A DNA stretch of 43,509 bases from a virus (IMGVR_UViG_2703718810_000003); one strand, 5' to 3'. Counted from the stretch's first letter, positions 3,750 through 39,336 are shown. Numbers and translations: made by a program. Notes: generated by a model not told the origin, from the sequence alone.

Positions 3750-6700
3750 TCAGCATTCCTCCGTCACGACGCATGGATAACATCACCGCCTGTACCCGCT
3801 GGTCAATCAGTTGCACAAGGGTGCCCGCCGCTTCCGGCCCTATCTGCCCGTTAGCGCCGTCATTCTGAATGGCAATGTGGTACACCGGGGAATACACCAG
3901 ACCCGCACTGCCGTTCATACAGCCCACCGCACGCACGCCGAGTGAACCATCCGCTGCCCGGGTCAGGGGCATGATGGCTTCAGGTCCGGCTTCCCCCATC
4001 AGCCCTGCCCCTTTTGCAAAGGCAAAGTACGTGGGCGTGTCCACAATACTGTTACTGTATGCACTCAGGTTTGCCGAGGTATAAACGCCGCCTTTTGCAT
4101 TGGCCACCGCGCCACCCAGCCAGTTGCCTATACTGCCGAAAAATCCTCCTGCACCGGACATACTGTTTGCGGCCATCTTAATGCCGTTGACAATGGCCGC
4201 ACTCATAAGAACTTTTGATATTTCCTGCAGGATTGATGCAGCCCAGCTGCGCCATTCCACTTTATTTCCGTTCAGCATCTCCGTGATGTTATTCACCATC
4301 CCTGAGATACCGTCTGTCGCAAGCTGTGCTGCCTGTGAAGCGTAATCAGATGCGCTGTCCACCCAGTTACTTAGCCCTTCCTGCAGCCCTTTCTGCCAGT
4401 CAGCACGCTGCGCATCCGATTCGGCATAAAAAGCCTCCTGGTCTTTAAGGCGTTCACTCAGATACTGCGCATTCTGCGCCAGCGCCTGTCTGAAAAAATC
4501 CTCACTGATATCCCCTGTCTGATACTGAGACTGCAGGTCCGCATCCTTCTGGCGGTAGCCGTCACGAATCTGCTGCAGCTCCCGCATCCGTTCACGGACC
4601 CGCTCACCCTGCCCGTACCCCAGCAGCTCAGCGTCATTTGATGCCCTTTCGTCTGCATTATCATTTTTCAGAGCCTCCTCCCGGGCCCGTAACTGCTCCC
4701 GGATTTTCTTCTGGTCAATCAGGGCAGCATTGCGCAGCAACTCCTGCTTCTGTATCTCCGTCAGGGTTTTCAGCTCTCCCTGCGAGGTCTGGTACTTCAG
4801 CTTCGCCAGTTCTGTATTATTCCCTGCCAGTGCCAGTTGTTCCTTCTGCTGCTTCAGCAGACGGGAAAAACTGTCTTCCGCTTTTTCCGTCTCAGATTTT
4901 CCGCCCCGGGATTTGGGTTTATTCGCCTCATTATTGCGCCAGGCTTCCATCGAATTACGGATGTAACGCTGCCTCGCCTCCTGATACGTATCCCCCACCA
5001 GACCAAGGTCATCCGCCGCATACCCCAGCCGGGCACGCTCTTTTTCTTCCCCTTTCAGCCGGGACAGGGCCAGTTGACGCTCTGTGTTATTCAGGGCGCT
5101 CTGCTGTTTATCATCCAGAGTGGCCTGTGGCAGTCGCAGCGGTACACTCGCCAGTCCCTGACGCTGTTGCAGCAGTTCATTACCCAGCCCCAGCAGGCGG
5201 TTGAATTCCGTATGCTGACCGTTCATGACCAGCTGTGACTGATACGCTTTATTCTGCTCTGCCGCCTGCTGACGAATTAACACAACACGGCGCTCTTCCA
5301 GTCCGGCAAGCACATCCTGAATGGACTGCGCTTTTTCCTGCATCTGTGCCAGACGGGACTGCTCAACAGCAAACTGCTCTGTTGCCTGAGCAAGCTCTTC
5401 CGTTACAGTTTTCACCGATGTCAGATGGTTTATCATGAAGCCGTTACCGGTCGTCCAGCCCGGATTAGCCAGCACATACTGATACCCGGCAATTTTTTCC
5501 TGCAGGGATTTCACCCGGCTGGCCTGCTCATCAATCAGCCGGTTCTGCTCTGTCAGCGCCTCCCGTGTTCGCCCTTCGTTATCTGAGGCTTCAGGCAGAG
5601 ACATTGATGGCGTTTTATGCGCGATTTCATCTATCGTCAGTGCATACTGGCGCGCAGACTCCCTGGCCTGTTCCTGCTTCTGGTACAGCGTGTACCATGC
5701 GGCAGCTCCCAGCATCACCAGTCCGGGTACGCCTCCAACCAGTCCCAGCGCACCTCTCATCAGACGTGAACCCACCGCCGTTGTACTGTTCAGCGCATTC
5801 TGGGCGGCGGTTCTGGCAGCAATATTTCTGTTCAGGCGTTCCTGTGTGACCGCCAGACGGGCCTCTGCGGCAATCTGCATCTCAGTCCCGCGGGCTGCCG
5901 CCACAGCCTGCTGAGCCCGGTACACGGCTGCCCTTGCCCGCGCAGTGGCAATCTGCGTTCCCCTTAACTGGGCCTCAGCCAGTGCCACTTCATTACGTGC
6001 AGCGGTCACAAGTCCTGCCGTGGCAGACATCGCTCCGGAAGCCAGATTACCAAAGTACCGGGCCACCCCGACAGCAACCAGCACACCCGCAGCTGTTGCC
6101 ACGGTATCAATATTTCCGGCCACACCGTTCAGCGCGCCGGAGAGCGTTTTCGTCGCTCCGCTGGCCTCATTCGCGCCGCCCACCCAGGCCATAAAGGCGT
6201 TTTCCACCTTCGTGATACTACCGGAAACCGTTTCCGGCATGGCTGCATATTCATCACGCAATATCCCCAGCTGGCTGATTAACGCGGGAACGACTTTATC
6301 CGCCGTCAGTTGACCATCGTCCGCCATCGCCTTCAGATCCTTACGGGCCACGCCCATGCCTGCAGCCAGTGCGCGAATGATCCGGTCCCCACTTTCATTG
6401 ACCGAATTAAATTCCTCGCCGCGCAACACCCCCTGTGCCAGCGCCTGGCTGAACTGGGTGATCACCGAACCCGCCTCTGCCGCACTGGCACCGGAAATTT
6501 TCAGCCCTGTCGAAATGGCCTCCGTCACCTTCAGCACATCATCAGCACTGTAACCATATTCACGCATCGAGGCAGCCGAACGGGCAAACAGGGCCGCATT
6601 ATCCGAAAATGCGGTGCCTGTCCGCTGGCTGATATCCATCAGCACTTTCTGTGATGACGAAAATTCATCCGATGACTGCGACGCCTGTTTCAGACGGGCA

Positions 6701-14447: not shown

Positions 14448-16109
14448 TTATATGAAAAAAACCGCATATTCTTTCTTTTTCGGCCCCGGATTCAGGGACA
14501 TCAGGGATACCGCATTGAAGAGCGCCATCAGCGGGTCAATTTTCCCCCGTCCGCTGGCCTGTTTGGTAATAAGGATGGCGTTACCTTTAGGCTCCACCCG
14601 GGCATTGCCAACGCACCAAGCCATCAGTGGCTGACCACCATGCACCAGCACTCCCTCAGCCAGTTTGCGCTCGGTGGTTTTGATGGCCCCGCCCAGCTTC
14701 CAGCCCTGGCTTATCCCCACAACAATTCCGTCGGGGATCCCGGCTTCCGCCAGTGAATCCAGAATCTGCCCCACACCTGACGGGTCAATACCGATATGAT
14801 CCAGTAACTCAGCCTCATGGATACGACGCACATACTCCGCCACTTCCGCCGTGTCATCCCCGACCCGACGGACAATCGTCATGTCTCCACAGGCCACAAA
14901 ATCCTGAAACCGGGATGCCTCACTCTTCCGTCTGAGCACCGCGGTTTCATGCGCCCAGGCATGGCCCCAGCCCAGCCATTCGCGGGTTTCCCTGTCACGG
15001 CCAATCACGTACATTCCCAGCAGATCATCCAGGCCCCCGCCGTCAATCCCCACCGTCACCACATCAGCGCGCTGCAGGATATCGTCCAGGCTGACGCGCC
15101 TGCCCTGCTGCTCCCAGAAATCCGCGCCCGCCCAGCGGTCAGAACGCAGGGCAAGACCGATTTCCACATTGGCGTGTTTTGACATGAAGCCACGAAATGC
15201 TTCCTCACCAGCCTCCCGGGCTTTACGGTACTCCCGGTACAGAAAAGCCTCATCCACCGAATAACCGAGATTCGGATTGACCATGGCGAGGTTTTCCATC
15301 AGCAGGTGAGCCCCGCTTTCCACCATTTCAGGAGGGTGTTCAAATATCACCGGCAGAAAGTGCGGATCATGAATTTTGCCGTCACGGACATCCCGGGCGT
15401 ACTGCAGTTTCTGTCTGAACACTCCGGCTGGCGGCTCATTCGACTGGGTGGTCGTATACACCACAAACCCTTCCGGGCGGGAGGCAAGGCCGCCTATGGC
15501 TTCACGTAACATGTCCTCCGCCTTGCACTGCTTGCCAAATAACCACAGTTCATCAATCAGCGTCCCCACGGACTTGATACCGGACACCGTATTCGGATCG
15601 GCAGCCACCACCTTAAGGGTGGTGTCCGTCACCCGATGGGTGATGGTCCGGATATGTGTCTGCACCTGACAGAGGTCATCCAGATCATCGTCCCGTCGTA
15701 CCATATCCCTGGCAGGGTTGAAGGCGTTAGCCGCCACCTCCACGGTCGGGGCCAGAATGGTGTAGCCCGCCGCCTGCCGCCAGTTCAGTAACAGCGCCGT
15801 CATCATGATCCCCGCGGCCAGCGTGGACTTGCTGTTTTTTTTCGGTATCAGAATGAACACTTCCTTTATATGGCGTACACCGGTCTGCGCATCGTAGGAG
15901 CCAAACAGGGCCGCCACCAGGTCAAACACCCACGCTGCACAGGACTCCCCGAACGTCGGGCTGCCCGGTGCATCCACAATCCGCAGTTGTTTAAAAATCG
16001 CCAGGGCATGTGCGGCCTGCTCCGGGTAAATCGGAGACGGAATAATCGACAGCCCCTTTTTCAGACGCTCTGCCCAGTCCGGGCAGGCCGTGCTCCACAC
16101 TGGTATCAT
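14448..16109 (-). CDS. Terminase large subunit
   Basis: 553 aa; N-terminal ATPase-like region (ILIPKKNSKST) and C-terminal RNase-H-like nuclease region (VTVGIDGGGLDDLLG); follows small subunit. Confidence 0.75.
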   Translation of the reverse strand: MIPVWSTACPDWAERLKKGLSIIPSPIYPEQAAHALAIFKQLRIVDAPGSPTFGESCAAWVFDLVAALFGSYDAQTGVRHIKEVFILIPKKNSKSTLAAGIMMTALLLNWRQAAGYTILAPTVEVAANAFNPARDMVRRDDDLDDLCQVQTHIRTITHRVTDTTLKVVAADPNTVSGIKSVGTLIDELWLFGKQCKAEDMLREAIGGLASRPEGFVVYTTTQSNEPPAGVFRQKLQYARDVRDGKIHDPHFLPVIFEHPPEMVESGAHLLMENLAMVNPNLGYSVDEAFLYREYRKAREAGEEAFRGFMSKHANVEIGLALRSDRWAGADFWEQQGRRVSLDDILQRADVVTVGIDGGGLDDLLGMYVIGRDRETREWLGWGHAWAHETAVLRRKSEASRFQDFVACGDMTIVRRVGDDTAEVAEYVRRIHEAELLDHIGIDPSGVGQILDSLAEAGIPDGIVVGISQGWKLGGAIKTTERKLAEGVLVHGGQPLMAWCVGNARVEPKGNAILITKQASGRGKIDPLMALFNAVSLMSLNPGPKKKEYAVFFI

Positions 16110-16669
16110 CCGTTGCCCTCATTATCATTATTCACCACCAGTCGGGGTGGTGGTGGCACCGCAAAACGGTTAGCCGCTTTTTTCGCCGCGTCACCTTTTG
16201 CCGATTTTTTACCGGCATCCCCTTTTTTGTGGTGCGTGAACTGCGCCAGCTTATAAGCCGCATCCAGCGCCAGCCTGGGGTCGGTATTAATGTTCTCCAC
16301 CAGAAGACGCCCCATCGCTTTCACAGGATCGGGAAGACCGTCCTCCATATACTCAATACCAGGAGATATCACCACGGGCGGTGGCATCTCCGGATTTGTT
16401 TCGTCCGGCTGTGGTATTGCAGCCGCCTCACGGCGACGGGGTTTATCCTCCTGCTCTGATTTTTTCTGCCGGTAAACAGGAACCTCATCCACCTCCACCG
16501 TCTCGCACTGTTTACGGGCTATAAACGCAAGCACCTCCGGATCTTTTGCCAGCTGCGAGCCTTTAACCCTGGCTGTCTTCGCCGAATAACCGGCGGCAAT
16601 GGCTGACGCTGTTTTGTTTTTCCCGGACATGAGCGCCAGCGCAAATTTTCGTTTTTGCGTTGTCAGCAC
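16106..16669 (-). CDS. Terminase small subunit (GTG start)
   Basis: 187 aa, N-terminal HTH-like MSGKNKTASAIAAGYSAKTARVKGSQL; GTG start preceded by GGGAGGAGG. Confidence 0.7.
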   Translation of the reverse strand: MLTTQKRKFALALMSGKNKTASAIAAGYSAKTARVKGSQLAKDPEVLAFIARKQCETVEVDEVPVYRQKKSEQEDKPRRREAAAIPQPDETNPEMPPPVVISPGIEYMEDGLPDPVKAMGRLLVENINTDPRLALDAAYKLAQFTHHKKGDAGKKSAKGDAAKKAANRFAVPPPPRLVVNNDNEGNG

Positions 16670-16958: not shown

Positions 16959-17324
16959 TTACAGTCCGATGATGTCGTCCGCTCTGCCACTACCTCCGGA
17001 CACCTCCGGCAGTGTCGGGTCCGGCATACCACTCGCCGCTTCACGAACAGACTTTTGTCGATGGCATTCGGTACAGAGCGTCCAGAGATTCGTCTCCTCA
17101 TTACCACCACCGAATTGAAGTGCAATTCGGTGATCGAGTTCACTGTCACAGACGTCAACCACACGACCACAGAGACAGCACTGCCCGGCGTCCCTGAGCC
17201 AGATATGACGCTTGAGGGAAACACGTGCACTGCCACTGACACGACGCTGTTCACCCTTCAGAATATTCACCCGTCGGGTATTCAGTGTTTTGATTCTGCT
17301 CTGGAGTGTACGAAGCTGAGCCAT
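16959..17324 (-). CDS. HNH endonuclease (packaging-associated)
   Basis: 121 aa with CxxC...DHRIALQFGG.NEE.NLWTLCTECHRQK HNH motif; positioned just upstream of terminase genes. Confidence 0.8.
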   Translation of the reverse strand: MAQLRTLQSRIKTLNTRRVNILKGEQRRVSGSARVSLKRHIWLRDAGQCCLCGRVVDVCDSELDHRIALQFGGGNEETNLWTLCTECHRQKSVREAASGMPDPTLPEVSGGSGRADDIIGL

Positions 17325-17697: not shown

Positions 17698-18030
17698 TCA
17701 GGGTGCAGAAGGACTAAAGATAAACGTTTTCTTCACGCCTTTACGCGGCCTGTCCTTCTCAAATCGCCATTTTGCCATCGCTTTTACAACCTGCTCATCA
17801 AACAGATGGTGCGGCTCTGAACGGATAAACTCAATTCGGGTGACAGTACCATCAGCACCAATATCAAACTTCACATCAACCCGTCCCTTTATATAATTTG
17901 CCGCTGCATAGGCCGGATATTGTGGTAATGCCTTAACCAACTGTCGGGGCATATCTGTTTTATGTTGCGTACAGCCCATAACCAGAGAAGACAACAAAAT
18001 AATTAACGGAAGATTTCTTTTCATTTTCAT
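17698..18030 (-). CDS. Lipoprotein with TonB C-terminal domain
   Basis: Signal peptide plus lipobox (LPLIILLSSLVMGC); PQYPAYAAANYIKGRVDVKFDIGADGTVTRIEFIRSEPHHLFDEQVVKAMAKWRF aligns with E. coli TonB C-terminus (PQYPARAQALRIEGQVKVKFDV...MRRWRYEP) as I recall it. Confidence 0.7.
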   Translation of the reverse strand: MKMKRNLPLIILLSSLVMGCTQHKTDMPRQLVKALPQYPAYAAANYIKGRVDVKFDIGADGTVTRIEFIRSEPHHLFDEQVVKAMAKWRFEKDRPRKGVKKTFIFSPSAP

Positions 18031-18369
18031 TCCCGGCACAGATAAGAATAAGTCTTATTCTAACAATGCCACCCTGTCGGTCATCAATCCTCTGCTTAAT
18101 GGCAACGACAATTATCCGACTTAAATCACAAATCAGACACATGACATAACAGAGCTTGCGAGGTAACACATCGTCCGGTTTCTTCCACCATCGCACCGGA
18201 CCAGCGACCATGAGGGGACAACGCCGCGCTCCGTTAACGCGGTAAACCCCGGTGTGTATCGTTTTTGATTATCCCCGCACACTCGCGCAGAGGAGTCTCC
18301 CTGTCGGGCTGCGGTCTCTGTTAATACGGGAATACGGCGACAATACCGCGCCATGGATAATAAGGTCGC

Positions 18370-18594
18370 TCAACACACTGGCTGTAATGCAGCGGATACC
18401 ATGCGGCATTTAGCGGCATTCATCGTACACTCAACGGTTAGCTCTTCATTCGTGGCATTCACCTGAAAGGTCCGGGAGTGTAATTGCGTACATTTACCAC
18501 TGAACGAACCTTCAACAAGAACACGACCACGCTGCAAAATACGGAACGGAATTGTTCCCTGAAAAGGTTCTACGGTTACCCGTAATTTCTTCAT
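18370..18594 (-). CDS. Hypothetical Cys-containing 74-aa protein translationally coupled to Rz
   Basis: ATG overlaps Rz stop (ATGA); no signal peptide; no family recognised. Confidence 0.35.
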
Positions 18595-19085
18595 GTATCC
18601 TCCGGATAATAAAAAGCCAGCTTAGTGCACTGAGTGCGTATATATTCCTGCGCCCCTTCCAGCTGCTTCTGCATTGTCATCAACCGTTCTCTGAGGTTGA
18701 AATAATCCCGTTCAGCGGTGTCTGCCAGTCGGGGGCCGGTTGCATTATCCACGCCGGAGGTGCCGGTGGCTTCACGCACGGTACCGGGGCAGGAGGCGTT
18801 GAGCCGCAGGCGCTTACGACCAGCGGCAACATCAGCACGCAGAGTTTCATTTTCAGCTCTCGCATCGGCTAATTCCCTTGAGTATCTGGCATCAAGCGCA
18901 GCAACATCACGCTGGCGCTGCTGCATGTCAGTAATGGTTGCGTTTGCCAGCTCCAGCTCTCTGGCTTTTTTATCGCGCTGCGCTTTGTAGGTGATGGCGT
19001 TATCACGGTAATGATTCAGCCCCAGACTAAGCGCACCACAGGCCACCAGCAAGGCAATAATGACCACACACAGAACGCGGTTCAT
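18591..19085 (-). CDS. Rz: Spanin inner-membrane subunit Rz
   Basis: N-terminal TM helix, long coiled-coil periplasmic domain, follows endolysin; Rz1 embedded in +1 frame. Confidence 0.8.
18680..18865 (-). CDS. Rz1: Spanin outer-membrane lipoprotein Rz1 (embedded in Rz)
   Basis: Signal peptide with lipobox LVVSAC then Pro-rich segment ([16 protein letters not shown]), fully inside Rz in a different frame. Confidence 0.75.
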
Positions 19086-19382: not shown

Positions 19383-19916
19383 TTATCTGTCGATTCCCCA
19401 GCACGCCAGCGCGCTCTCCTGGTCACGACGGGATATCTGACCGTAGCAATTATTTGAGCGAATACGGCAGTCTCTGCCACCGTCCTTAATCCACCAGCGA
19501 ATCGCCTCACACGCTCCCCTGCGATCGCCTGCATTAATTCGTTTATAAAACGTCGACGGGAAACACTTACCTGGGCCAATGTTATACGGGCAGAATGACG
19601 CAATACCCGCTTTCTGGGGTTCGGTCAGTGGCACTTTGATGTTTTTCTCCACCCATGCCAGCGCCTTATCACGTTCAATGGCGTTAACCTGGTCGCATTT
19701 TTCCTTCGTCAACTTCATGCCAGGAATAACAGGCTTACCATCCACCCGGGTGGCTCCACGGCAGATGGTCCAGATACCCGCGCCATCACGGTATGCCGTG
19801 GTGTGGTTGCCTTCTTTTTCATCCAGAAACTGGTCGAGGATTTCAGGCGCAGACGCCCCTGCACCAATCAGCGCCAGAACGGCAGCCGATAAACCATAGC
19901 GGAGTTTCCTGCTCAT
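19383..19916 (-). CDS. R: SAR endolysin (T4-lysozyme-like muramidase)
   Basis: N-terminal signal-anchor-release segment (LSAAVLALIGAGASA) followed by E...D...T catalytic region (EKEGNHTTAYRDGAGIWTICRG). Confidence 0.8.
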   Translation of the reverse strand: MSRKLRYGLSAAVLALIGAGASAPEILDQFLDEKEGNHTTAYRDGAGIWTICRGATRVDGKPVIPGMKLTKEKCDQVNAIERDKALAWVEKNIKVPLTEPQKAGIASFCPYNIGPGKCFPSTFYKRINAGDRRGACEAIRWWIKDGGRDCRIRSNNCYGQISRRDQESALACWGIDR

Positions 19917-38675: not shown

Positions 38676-39147
38676 TTAGCGCCAGTAAAAACAGGTTTCC
38701 ACAGGTTAATTTACCCTGAAAAGTCAGGGCATAACACGAAAGCGCACGGCGAGATTCCTTTGCATATAAGGTTAGATTTCTTCGACCGTGCGCTTCCGGT
38801 TGTGGCAATCCGCGAAATGGCGCGGCGGTAAGTATGGCGGGGTTATTCCTTCCCCCGTTGAGGACACCGGGTTGTCAGGTTGACCATACGCTTAAGTGAC
38901 ACCCCAGCCACAACAACCTCTGTTATCACTTTTCTGGTGATTCGGCGGAAATGAATATCCGCCCTTTTTAAAGTGAATTTTGTGATGCTGTGAATGCGGC
39001 TATGCGCACGCGGAACAGTTAAAGCAGTAAGGCGGTCTTTTACTGGCGTAACGAGCATCAACTAACCCGACGTTAATTGTTAACTGGTTAACGTCACCTG
39101 GAGGCACCAGGCGCTGCATCACAAAATTCATTGTTGAGGACGCGATA

Positions 39148-39336
39148 ATGGAAACGTTATTACCAAACGTTAATACGTCTGAAGGTTGTTTTGATATTGG
39201 TGTTCTGCTCAGTAATAAAGCGTTTACTGAGGATGCCATTAATATGCGGAAATATGAGCCTTATCTGCTCAATGATAATTCCATTCTTTCCCGAATTGCC
39301 CTTATTAAACTTGGTATTTTCGGAGAACGTCAATGA
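39148..39336 (+). CDS. Hypothetical 62-aa protein
   Basis: GAGGA RBS 8 nt upstream; AT-rich gene; followed by a 17-codon hydrophobic mini-ORF overlapping its stop. Confidence 0.35.
   Translation: METLLPNVNTSEGCFDIGVLLSNKAFTEDAINMRKYEPYLLNDNSILSRIALIKLGIFGERQ

Follow-up and report, generated by a model that had tools for sequence, protein, structure and literature searches.

A prophage lipoprotein carrying a TonB C-terminal domain, a candidate decoy of host TonB, and its TolA-type companion

The virus-derived stretch IMGVR_UViG_2703718810_000003 (43,509 nucleotides, nt; hereafter the window) is a lambdoid Escherichia coli prophage that adjoins ompW, carries long-tail genes and lacks stx. A small gene on its late-gene strand, flanked by the lysis cassette on one side and the packaging genes on the other, encodes a lipoprotein with a TonB C-terminal domain as its mature part. 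Elsewhere in the same prophage is the gene for a second lipoprotein, which carries TolA domain III. Here we describe the two proteins, their distribution and their likely origin, and weigh the proposal that the TonB-type lipoprotein is a decoy of host TonB held at the outer membrane.

The TonB-type lipoprotein and its gene

The gene lies in an intact open reading frame (ORF) at 17698..18039 (-) in the ORF list of the window, and its coding sequence has 100% nucleotide identity to a region annotated as WP_000828070.1, 'TonB family protein'. Other GenBank names are "putative tonB-like membrane from phage origin" and "TonB C-terminal domain protein", and an older record has 'partial tonB-like membrane protein'. 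As an annotation the gene is thus already known, and it is not a discovery as such; newly noted here is the TolA-domain-III lipoprotein in the same prophage. The first-pass annotation had placed the start at ATG 18030 (110 amino acids, aa), two codons upstream of ATG 18024, which adds Met-Lys. The gene stands, with ATG 18024 (108 aa) as the likelier start, because a GGGA precedes it by 6 nt, the phage 21 clade of the gene lacks the upstream ATG, and the RefSeq protein WP_000828070.1 starts there.

Residues 1-18 (MKRNLPLIILLSSLVMG followed by Cys18) run from a basic n-region through a hydrophobic core to a lipobox, and Thr occupies position +2. They match a PROSITE-type lipobox pattern ([LVI][ASTVIM][GAS]C with the Cys at position 15-35, a basic n-region and a hydrophobic h-region), which also fits all family members checked. 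Cys18 (17971..17973), the predicted acylated N-terminus of the mature protein, is present in all full-length homologues, even in those with 33-46% identity. The residue that follows the Cys governs the sorting of lipoproteins by the Lol system (the +2 rule). It is Ser or Thr in the seven relatives checked, with no Lol-avoidance Asp, and the Thr of the window protein predicts sorting to the outer membrane. The tether between the acylated Cys and the domain is only 8 residues long (CTQHKTDM).

Profile, sequence and structure comparisons agree on the identity of the mature part. It matches Pfam TonB_C (5.5e-15; 56 bits against a cut-off of 24.6) and TIGR01352 (56.5 bits against 27.1), while the hidden Markov models of full-length TonB equivalogs score 49-73 bits against cut-offs of 265-448, the match being confined to their C-terminal region. 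A phmmer search of the PDB finds E. coli TonB (1u07, 4.7e-16) and Salmonella TonB (8rd6, 3.1e-16), with a gapless alignment to E. coli TonB from P153 to ~K231 and 37-39% identity to the E. coli TonB structures. The AlphaFold2 model, a monomer built on six family members, has a mean predicted local distance difference test score (pLDDT) of 84.5, and of 92-98 over residues 31-100. Foldseek superposes it with a root-mean-square deviation of 1.1 Å and probability 1.00 on free TonB (1u07_A), BtuB-bound TonB (2gsk_B) and FhuA-bound TonB (2grx_C). The fold search returned TonB and TolA domains only, all top matches being TonB, and the resemblance is far beyond chance. Thus the claim of the first-pass annotation that the mature part of a lipoprotein aligns with the TonB C-terminal domain is borne out by lipobox, Pfam, phmmer, AlphaFold2 and Foldseek alike, and the superposition that it had proposed as a check gave the close fit described above.

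Residues of the window protein correspond to TonB residues on addition of 127. Kept in this comparison are the YP motif (Y36-P37, TonB Y163-P164), the aromatic core (F53, F75, W86, F88 and F103, TonB F180, F202, W213, Y215 and F230, with Phe in place of Y215) and G59 (TonB G186). The beta3 strand is confidently modelled (residues 96-105), its V97-S104 corresponding to TonB I224-K231; in published TonB complexes this is the strand that pairs with the Ton box of the receptor. The segment equivalent to TonB 155-160 is variable across the lipoprotein family, and the tail after beta3 has just five residues (SPSAP).

The likeness to the TonB C-terminal domain (~150-239; 1u07, 2gsk, 2grx) thus extends to fold, YP motif, aromatic core and beta3, whereas the rest of TonB has no counterpart. 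TonB proper has an uncleaved N-terminal transmembrane helix that couples it to ExbB/ExbD, where the lipoprotein has a cleavable signal peptide, and a proline-rich spacer that spans the periplasm, where the lipoprotein has its short tether. The predicted lipid anchor would also place the protein in the outer membrane, opposite the anchor of TonB; R158, Q160 and R166 are replaced and the tail is short. Identity as a TonB energy transducer was rejected on the absence of transmembrane anchor and spacer.

Table 1. Features of the two lipoprotein genes and of the flanking region in the window
Feature	Position	Strand	Basis or remark
TonB-C-terminal-domain lipoprotein, coding sequence	17698..18024	-	108 aa + stop
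Signal peptide, residues 1-17, MKRNLPLIILLSSLVMG	17974..18024	-	sequence and PROSITE-type lipobox pattern
Lipobox L-V-M-G-C	17971..17985	-	PROSITE-type pattern; Cys invariant in homologues
TonB C-terminal domain, residues P26-S104 (E. coli TonB P153-K231)	17713..17949	-	profiles, model
Shine-Dalgarno-like GGGA, 6 nt before ATG 18024	18031..18034	-	AGGA there in the phage 21 clade
Candidate sigma-70 promoter, extended -10, ATGACC-16 nt-TGtTAGAAT	18057..18084	-	consensus scan
Palindrome AGAATAAGaCTTATTCT over -10 and start site	18041..18059	.	13/19 match to Fur-box consensus
TolA-domain-III lipoprotein, 142 aa, RefSeq 'tolA' WP_032330558.1	24304..24732	-	Pfam, PDB, lipobox
Lysozyme	19383..19916		lysis cassette
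Rz i-spanin	18591..19085	-	phrog_13 5e-76; upstream boundary of the moron slot
Rz1 o-spanin, embedded in Rz	18680..18865		phrog_3198 1.9e-31
HNH endonuclease	16959..17324	-	Pfam HNH; downstream boundary of the moron slot
Terminase small subunit	16106..16669		RefSeq annotation of identical relatives

Upstream of the gene, the consensus scan that located the candidate sigma-70 promoter gave no enrichment over shuffled sequences (2 found, 2.5 expected). When the two E. coli clades of the gene are aligned, its TGnNAGAAT core is kept in the phage 21 clade, where it stands between divergent flanks among the few islands of conservation immediately before the start, which suggests that the gene may be expressed independently of the late operon. 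The palindrome AGAATAAGaCTTATTCT is among 14 of ~87,000 window positions that score at least 13 in a Fur-box scan. It is a possible iron-responsive operator, though at most a clade-specific one, since thirteen of its bases are deleted in the phage 21 clade. A search for structured RNA or a riboswitch in the upstream region found no Rfam match at E <= 1, with a fold z-score of -1.58.

The TolA-type companion and the spread of both genes

The second lipoprotein follows the same design, with a longer linker, a different slot and, as its presumed target, the Tol-Pal route in place of the Ton route. It begins with MYCRAVPVLVLILASLTTG followed by CTKD, fits the PROSITE-type pattern with the lipobox LTTG-C and Thr at +2, and continues through a linker of ~35 residues into a complete TolA domain III. 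This domain matches Pfam TolA (3.4e-22) and PDB TolA domain III (1s62, 7e-25), aligned to TolA 334-420 with about half of the residues identical by hand count. The gene (GC content 42%) occupies the stx slot, downstream of Q and tRNAs and upstream of a SASA esterase and the holin. Relatives of the protein, which PHROG 5772 lists as of unknown function, are found in 897 of 5426 complete E. coli genomes (17%).

In two other lambdoid prophages TolA-domain-III genes occur in tandem directly upstream of the holin, in the same slot: phage mEp460_ev081 (L022, 4001..4429 and 4580..4975), where both products have a lipobox, and a prophage of E. coli strain LD67-1 (L034, 10455..11429). Such pairs suggest diversification of the putative decoy, perhaps against different colicins. 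Phage 21 has the TonB-type gene and no match to the TolA-type protein; the LD67-1 prophage has TolA-type genes and, between its lysis genes and terminase, trkG, not a TonB-type gene. The two genes are thus independent modules, and the window prophage has both. All ten contexts of the exact TolA-type protein also hold the TonB-type gene, and all belong to one prophage lineage.

The TonB C-terminal domain and TolA domain III each bind a short N-terminal "box" of their partner by strand addition. They are structural cousins, TolA domains appearing at ranks 18-25 of the Foldseek search. The presence of a TonB-type and a TolA-type lipoprotein in one prophage is for this analysis the strongest new argument for deliberate mimicry.

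Relatives of the TonB-type gene are present in 1616 of the 5426 complete E. coli genomes (30%). The allele type of the window (at least 95% identity) accounts for 414 of these, and ~1200 more carry a second clade with ~73% nucleotide and 71% protein identity to it. The carriers include Shiga toxin-producing E. coli (STEC), LF82 and uropathogenic (UPEC) strains. The phage records with the gene are JLK-2012, Lys8385Vzw, four Stx1a phages, phage 21, ev017, Perceval, three PhiR phages and a Klebsiella phage. In every phage context examined (E. coli, Klebsiella and a Sodalis prophage) it lies between the lysis genes and the terminase or cos, in what is the classical bor-type moron slot; in phage 21 it adjoins bor itself. 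Its GC content is 43.7%, against 52.3% for the window. The ratio of nonsynonymous to synonymous substitution rates (dN/dS) against the phage 21 allele is 0.115, with dS 1.6, and the gene is under purifying selection. It is intact in relatives that have insertion sequence (IS) elements in the portal or lysis regions; several truncated or frameshifted alleles are found in the databases.

An exhaustive profile search retrieves a set of 107-133-aa proteins that share the lipobox, the short linker and a single TonB_C domain, together with the motifs YPxYAxAN and SEPxHLFD, which are unlike canonical TonB. Members of this family (~107-135 aa) occur in Klebsiella, Raoultella, Serratia, Erwinia and Sodalis, with 33-49% identity to the phage protein. 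They have the same layout and motifs as the window protein and are chromosomal and syntenic, except in Sodalis, where the gene is phage-borne; the chromosomal proteins are an uncharacterised bacterial family. The phage proteins derive from this family and not from a recent truncation of tonB, given 44-49% identity to its members against 37% to E. coli TonB.

A decoy of TonB and competing readings

The reading we favour, to which we give a little less than an even chance, is that the TonB-type lipoprotein is an outer-membrane-tethered decoy of host TonB. After cleavage by signal peptidase II and acylation of Cys18, the Lol system would insert the protein into the outer membrane from the periplasmic side, in the inner leaflet, and the short tether would hold the domain directly under the TonB-dependent transporters. 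There its exposed beta3 edge should capture the Ton boxes of transporters such as FhuA, FepA, Cir and BtuB by beta-strand augmentation, and it would also occupy the Ton boxes of incoming group B colicins. Having neither the transmembrane anchor nor the proline-rich spacer of TonB, the decoy would transmit no energy, and native TonB, which is scarce, would be outcompeted. A lysogen, if it expresses the gene, or a late-infected cell would then tolerate those colicins, microcins and T1/phi80-type phages that depend on TonB, and would pay for this with some loss of siderophore and B12 uptake. The TolA-domain-III lipoprotein would likewise block the Tol route, taken by group A colicins and filamentous phages.

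The decoy reading, and with it the suggestion of the first-pass annotation that the protein might exclude TonB-dependent phages and group B colicins or alter iron uptake, gains indirect support from the predicted outer-membrane anchoring, the recurrent bor-like moron slot, the purifying selection and the TolA-type companion, so that the first-pass interpretation as a whole is partly supported. The well-supported TonB fold, closest to the BtuB- and FhuA-bound conformations, also speaks for a decoy; the pairing with the companion strengthens a dominant-negative action, which is plausible. Phage 21 natively uses LamB, so that its own entry by this receptor would be independent of the TonB-dependent transporters. 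The premise of the first-pass annotation, that periplasmic TonB fragments are dominant-negative, is found in the literature for TonB 33-239, 103-239 and 122-239, which inhibit ferrichrome transport and TonB-system activity (bioRxiv 10.1101/2020.01.05.895219). Like these engineered fragments, the lipoprotein is an exported domain uncoupled from the energy source; the fragments are soluble, overexpressed and longer, whereas the lipoprotein is natural, predicted to be lipid-anchored and minimal (equivalent to 153-231).

Small phage lipoproteins that act at the same place are known. The lipoproteins Llp of T5 and Cor of phi80, N15 and mEp167 reside in the inner leaflet of the outer membrane and act on FhuA from the periplasm. 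The TonB-type lipoprotein is likewise small, phage-encoded and equipped with a lipobox, and it may likewise act on a transporter. Membership of the Cor/Llp family was rejected, as the fold differs from the distinct one published for Llp and the FhuA:Llp entry 8A60 is not among the Foldseek top matches. Llp and Cor each block FhuA specifically, by an allosteric effect, whereas a mimic of TonB would act on every Ton-box protein and leave TonB-independent phages such as T5 unaffected. The mode of action of the lipoprotein would be that of a dominant-negative TonB fragment, and its use to the phage that of Cor or Llp. Bor/Iss and Lom of lambda follow the same genomic logic, as low-GC inserts near the lysis genes and cos that encode small proteins of the outer membrane; they share no sequence or fold similarity with the TonB-type protein, and another function is proposed for them.

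Several points weigh against the decoy reading. Lys, Ala, Leu and Tyr take the places of R158, N159, Q160 and R166, TonB residues reported to contact receptors, a change that does not exclude Ton-box binding, since capture is mainly by pairing of backbone strands. Short C-terminal fragments of TonB reportedly dimerise and inhibit poorly. The domain of the lipoprotein is shorter than the inhibitory fragments, all of which start at or before residue 122, and inhibition by long fragments may act partly via ExbD (both bioRxiv 10.1101/2020.01.05.895219), which an outer-membrane-tethered domain could hardly reach. Blocked iron uptake would be costly for a gut pathogen, and the candidate promoter is a consensus match. 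A functional study of phage TonB- or TolA-like lipoproteins was not found in the searchable literature, outside which subscription journals largely fall; the genome announcement of phage 21 lists only the annotation pipeline. Finally, the Klebsiella and Raoultella orthologues are chromosomal and syntenic beside lacYZI (L003, L007-L011, L013), and the Serratia copy (L015) is also chromosomal, flanked by the min genes and fadR and away from recognisable prophage genes; these orthologues suggest a host function that need not be exclusion.

The last point leads to another account of the protein, as a physiological modulator taken over from the bacterial family. By restricting the influx of iron, haem or B12, for example, such a protein would tune, park or protect the TonB-dependent transporters or the signalling through them; alternatively it would bind some other periplasmic partner. 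Phages would then carry it as a fitness moron unrelated to exclusion. The 33-46% identical orthologues beside lacYZI, the Serratia copy among housekeeping genes, the family motifs that differ from canonical TonB and the Fur-box-like palindrome over the promoter in the window clade all fit this account. The chromosomal family is, however, equally without a known function, a competitive role accounts better for the repeated capture into one phage slot and for the presence of a TolA mimic alongside, and the Fur-like site is absent from the phage 21 clade. We regard a modulator as unlikely, if worth taking seriously. A trap for TonB itself would give the same phenotype as a receptor decoy, with a different target and stoichiometry: the lipoprotein would heterodimerise with the C-terminal domain of native TonB and sequester the cell's few hundred copies of TonB at the outer membrane. 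In crystals, beta3 mediates dimerisation of TonB C-terminal domains, and the best structural match, 1u07, crystallises as a dimer; F202, W213 and Y215, which are conserved here, are reportedly implicated in TonB dimer cross-links. Titrating scarce TonB would also be cheaper than titrating abundant transporters. Against this, the physiological relevance of TonB C-terminal dimers is disputed, and a monomer model is uninformative on heterodimerisation; we consider trapping rather unlikely. It is quite improbable, in our estimate, that the TonB-type domain serves as an envelope tether, binding peptidoglycan so as to link the outer membrane to the wall and altering robustness, serum resistance or vesiculation. 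The bor slot is shared, the gene adjoins bor in phage 21, and a like effect has been proposed for bor; a TolA-like partner would make contact with the Tol-Pal envelope system as well, and affinity for peptidoglycan has been reported for the C-terminal domain of TonB. Yet Pfam finds TonB_C and TonB_2 only in the protein, with no peptidoglycan-binding motif, and an 8-residue tether is very short for reaching the wall.

Two further readings bear on how the gene has been labelled. The protein matches phrog_1267 (1.9e-42), labelled 'Rz-like spanin', and the gene follows the lysis cassette on the late strand, as might befit a lysis accessory or spanin. The label seems to have been given by gene position and to be mistaken, because a separate Rz/Rz1 pair is present and the protein has a globular TonB fold. 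Moreover, the gene is 550 nt away and not inside an i-spanin gene, the protein has neither the C-terminal transmembrane segment of unimolecular spanins nor the proline-rich character of o-spanins, and the chromosomal orthologues are far from any lysis genes. A role as spanin, very improbable on these grounds, was rejected. The old GenBank wording 'partial tonB-like membrane protein' and the truncated or frameshifted database alleles would suit a non-functional remnant of the 3' end of tonB, left by illegitimate recombination. This has next to no probability and is effectively refuted by the selection signature (the dN/dS given above) together with the gene's own export signal, a signal peptide and lipobox that tonB lacks; the protein is also closer to the lipoprotein family (44-46% identity) than to E. 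coli TonB (37%), and 30% of E. coli genomes carry a relative.

Taken beyond this one gene, the decoy reading leads to a broader proposal, which we put forward tentatively and on balance doubt: that lambdoid prophages deploy a hitherto unrecognised class of exclusion or tolerance factors made of outer-membrane lipoprotein mimics of the partner-binding C-terminal domains of TonB and TolA, which jointly shut both import routes of essentially all colicins and of TonB- and TolA-dependent phages, with no receptor destroyed. If such paired mimicry is real, the TonB-type (30%) and TolA-type (17%) genes would be among the commonest lysogenic-conversion functions of E. coli, and would provide a natural proof of principle for inhibitors that target the Ton box. 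The pairing also offers a clean contrast between group B and group A colicins, each arm with its positive control. Should the decoy reading hold for the TonB-type protein, a common prophage gene would explain part of the strain variation in sensitivity to colicins, microcins and phages and would bear on the uptake of siderophore-antibiotic (Trojan-horse) compounds, and mimicry of an energy transducer would join receptor blocking (Cor, Llp), receptor modification and injection blocks. If it is false, the gene is an ordinary annotated moron of unknown function. The analysis in addition puts a testable function on a chromosomal lipoprotein family of Klebsiella, Raoultella and Serratia.

Neighbouring genes and minor observations

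Searches of two further collections with the lipoproteins gave no match. PADLOC-DB, a catalogue of anti-phage defence proteins, returned nothing at E <= 0.1 for either protein, and among the BFVD viral structures the TonB-type protein had no TonB-like fold and no neighbour at E < 0.1.

Between the TonB-type gene and Rz, a 74-aa ORF (18370..18594, -) overlaps the stop codon of Rz at ATGA and is probably translationally coupled to it, as judged by this overlap. Its match to phrog_2571 (unknown function) is confined to the middle of that family, and phage 1720a-02 lacks the ORF at this position. In a block of ~180 nt (window ~18174..18352) no reading frame is kept consistently, and conservation between the two clades is higher than in the coding sequence. 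More than 100 Stx phages without the TonB-type gene carry this block at 97-100% identity; it has no Rfam match, and its fold z-score is -1.58. It was rejected as a leader of the TonB-type gene, since those Stx phages have it without the gene, and is probably a mosaic joint. At the Klebsiella and Raoultella locus of the TonB_C lipoprotein, a gene for a Rick_17kDa_Anti glycine-zipper lipoprotein adjoins.

A dicB gene is annotated in the identical lineage and lies at window ~39146..39334 (+), by offset from a close relative (L020). DicB reportedly protects against phages through inhibition of inner-membrane receptor proteins (PMC6832061). With dicB and the lipoproteins, the prophage may stack several entry-blocking functions. 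A gene for a PAPS-reductase-like protein (DUF3440; 29611..30837, +) and one for an IbrB-like protein (30822..31466, +) form a pair opposite in strand to the surrounding phage genes; the pair is moron-like and possibly related to DNA modification or defence.

As to the receptor of the phage, the C-terminus of J lies outside the window, and J of the identical lineage resembles that of long-tailed Stx phages such as BP-4795. In the close relative L020, an ompC porin gene (4992..6086) stands among the tail genes, between the homologues of L and M, an insert that the window prophage lacks.

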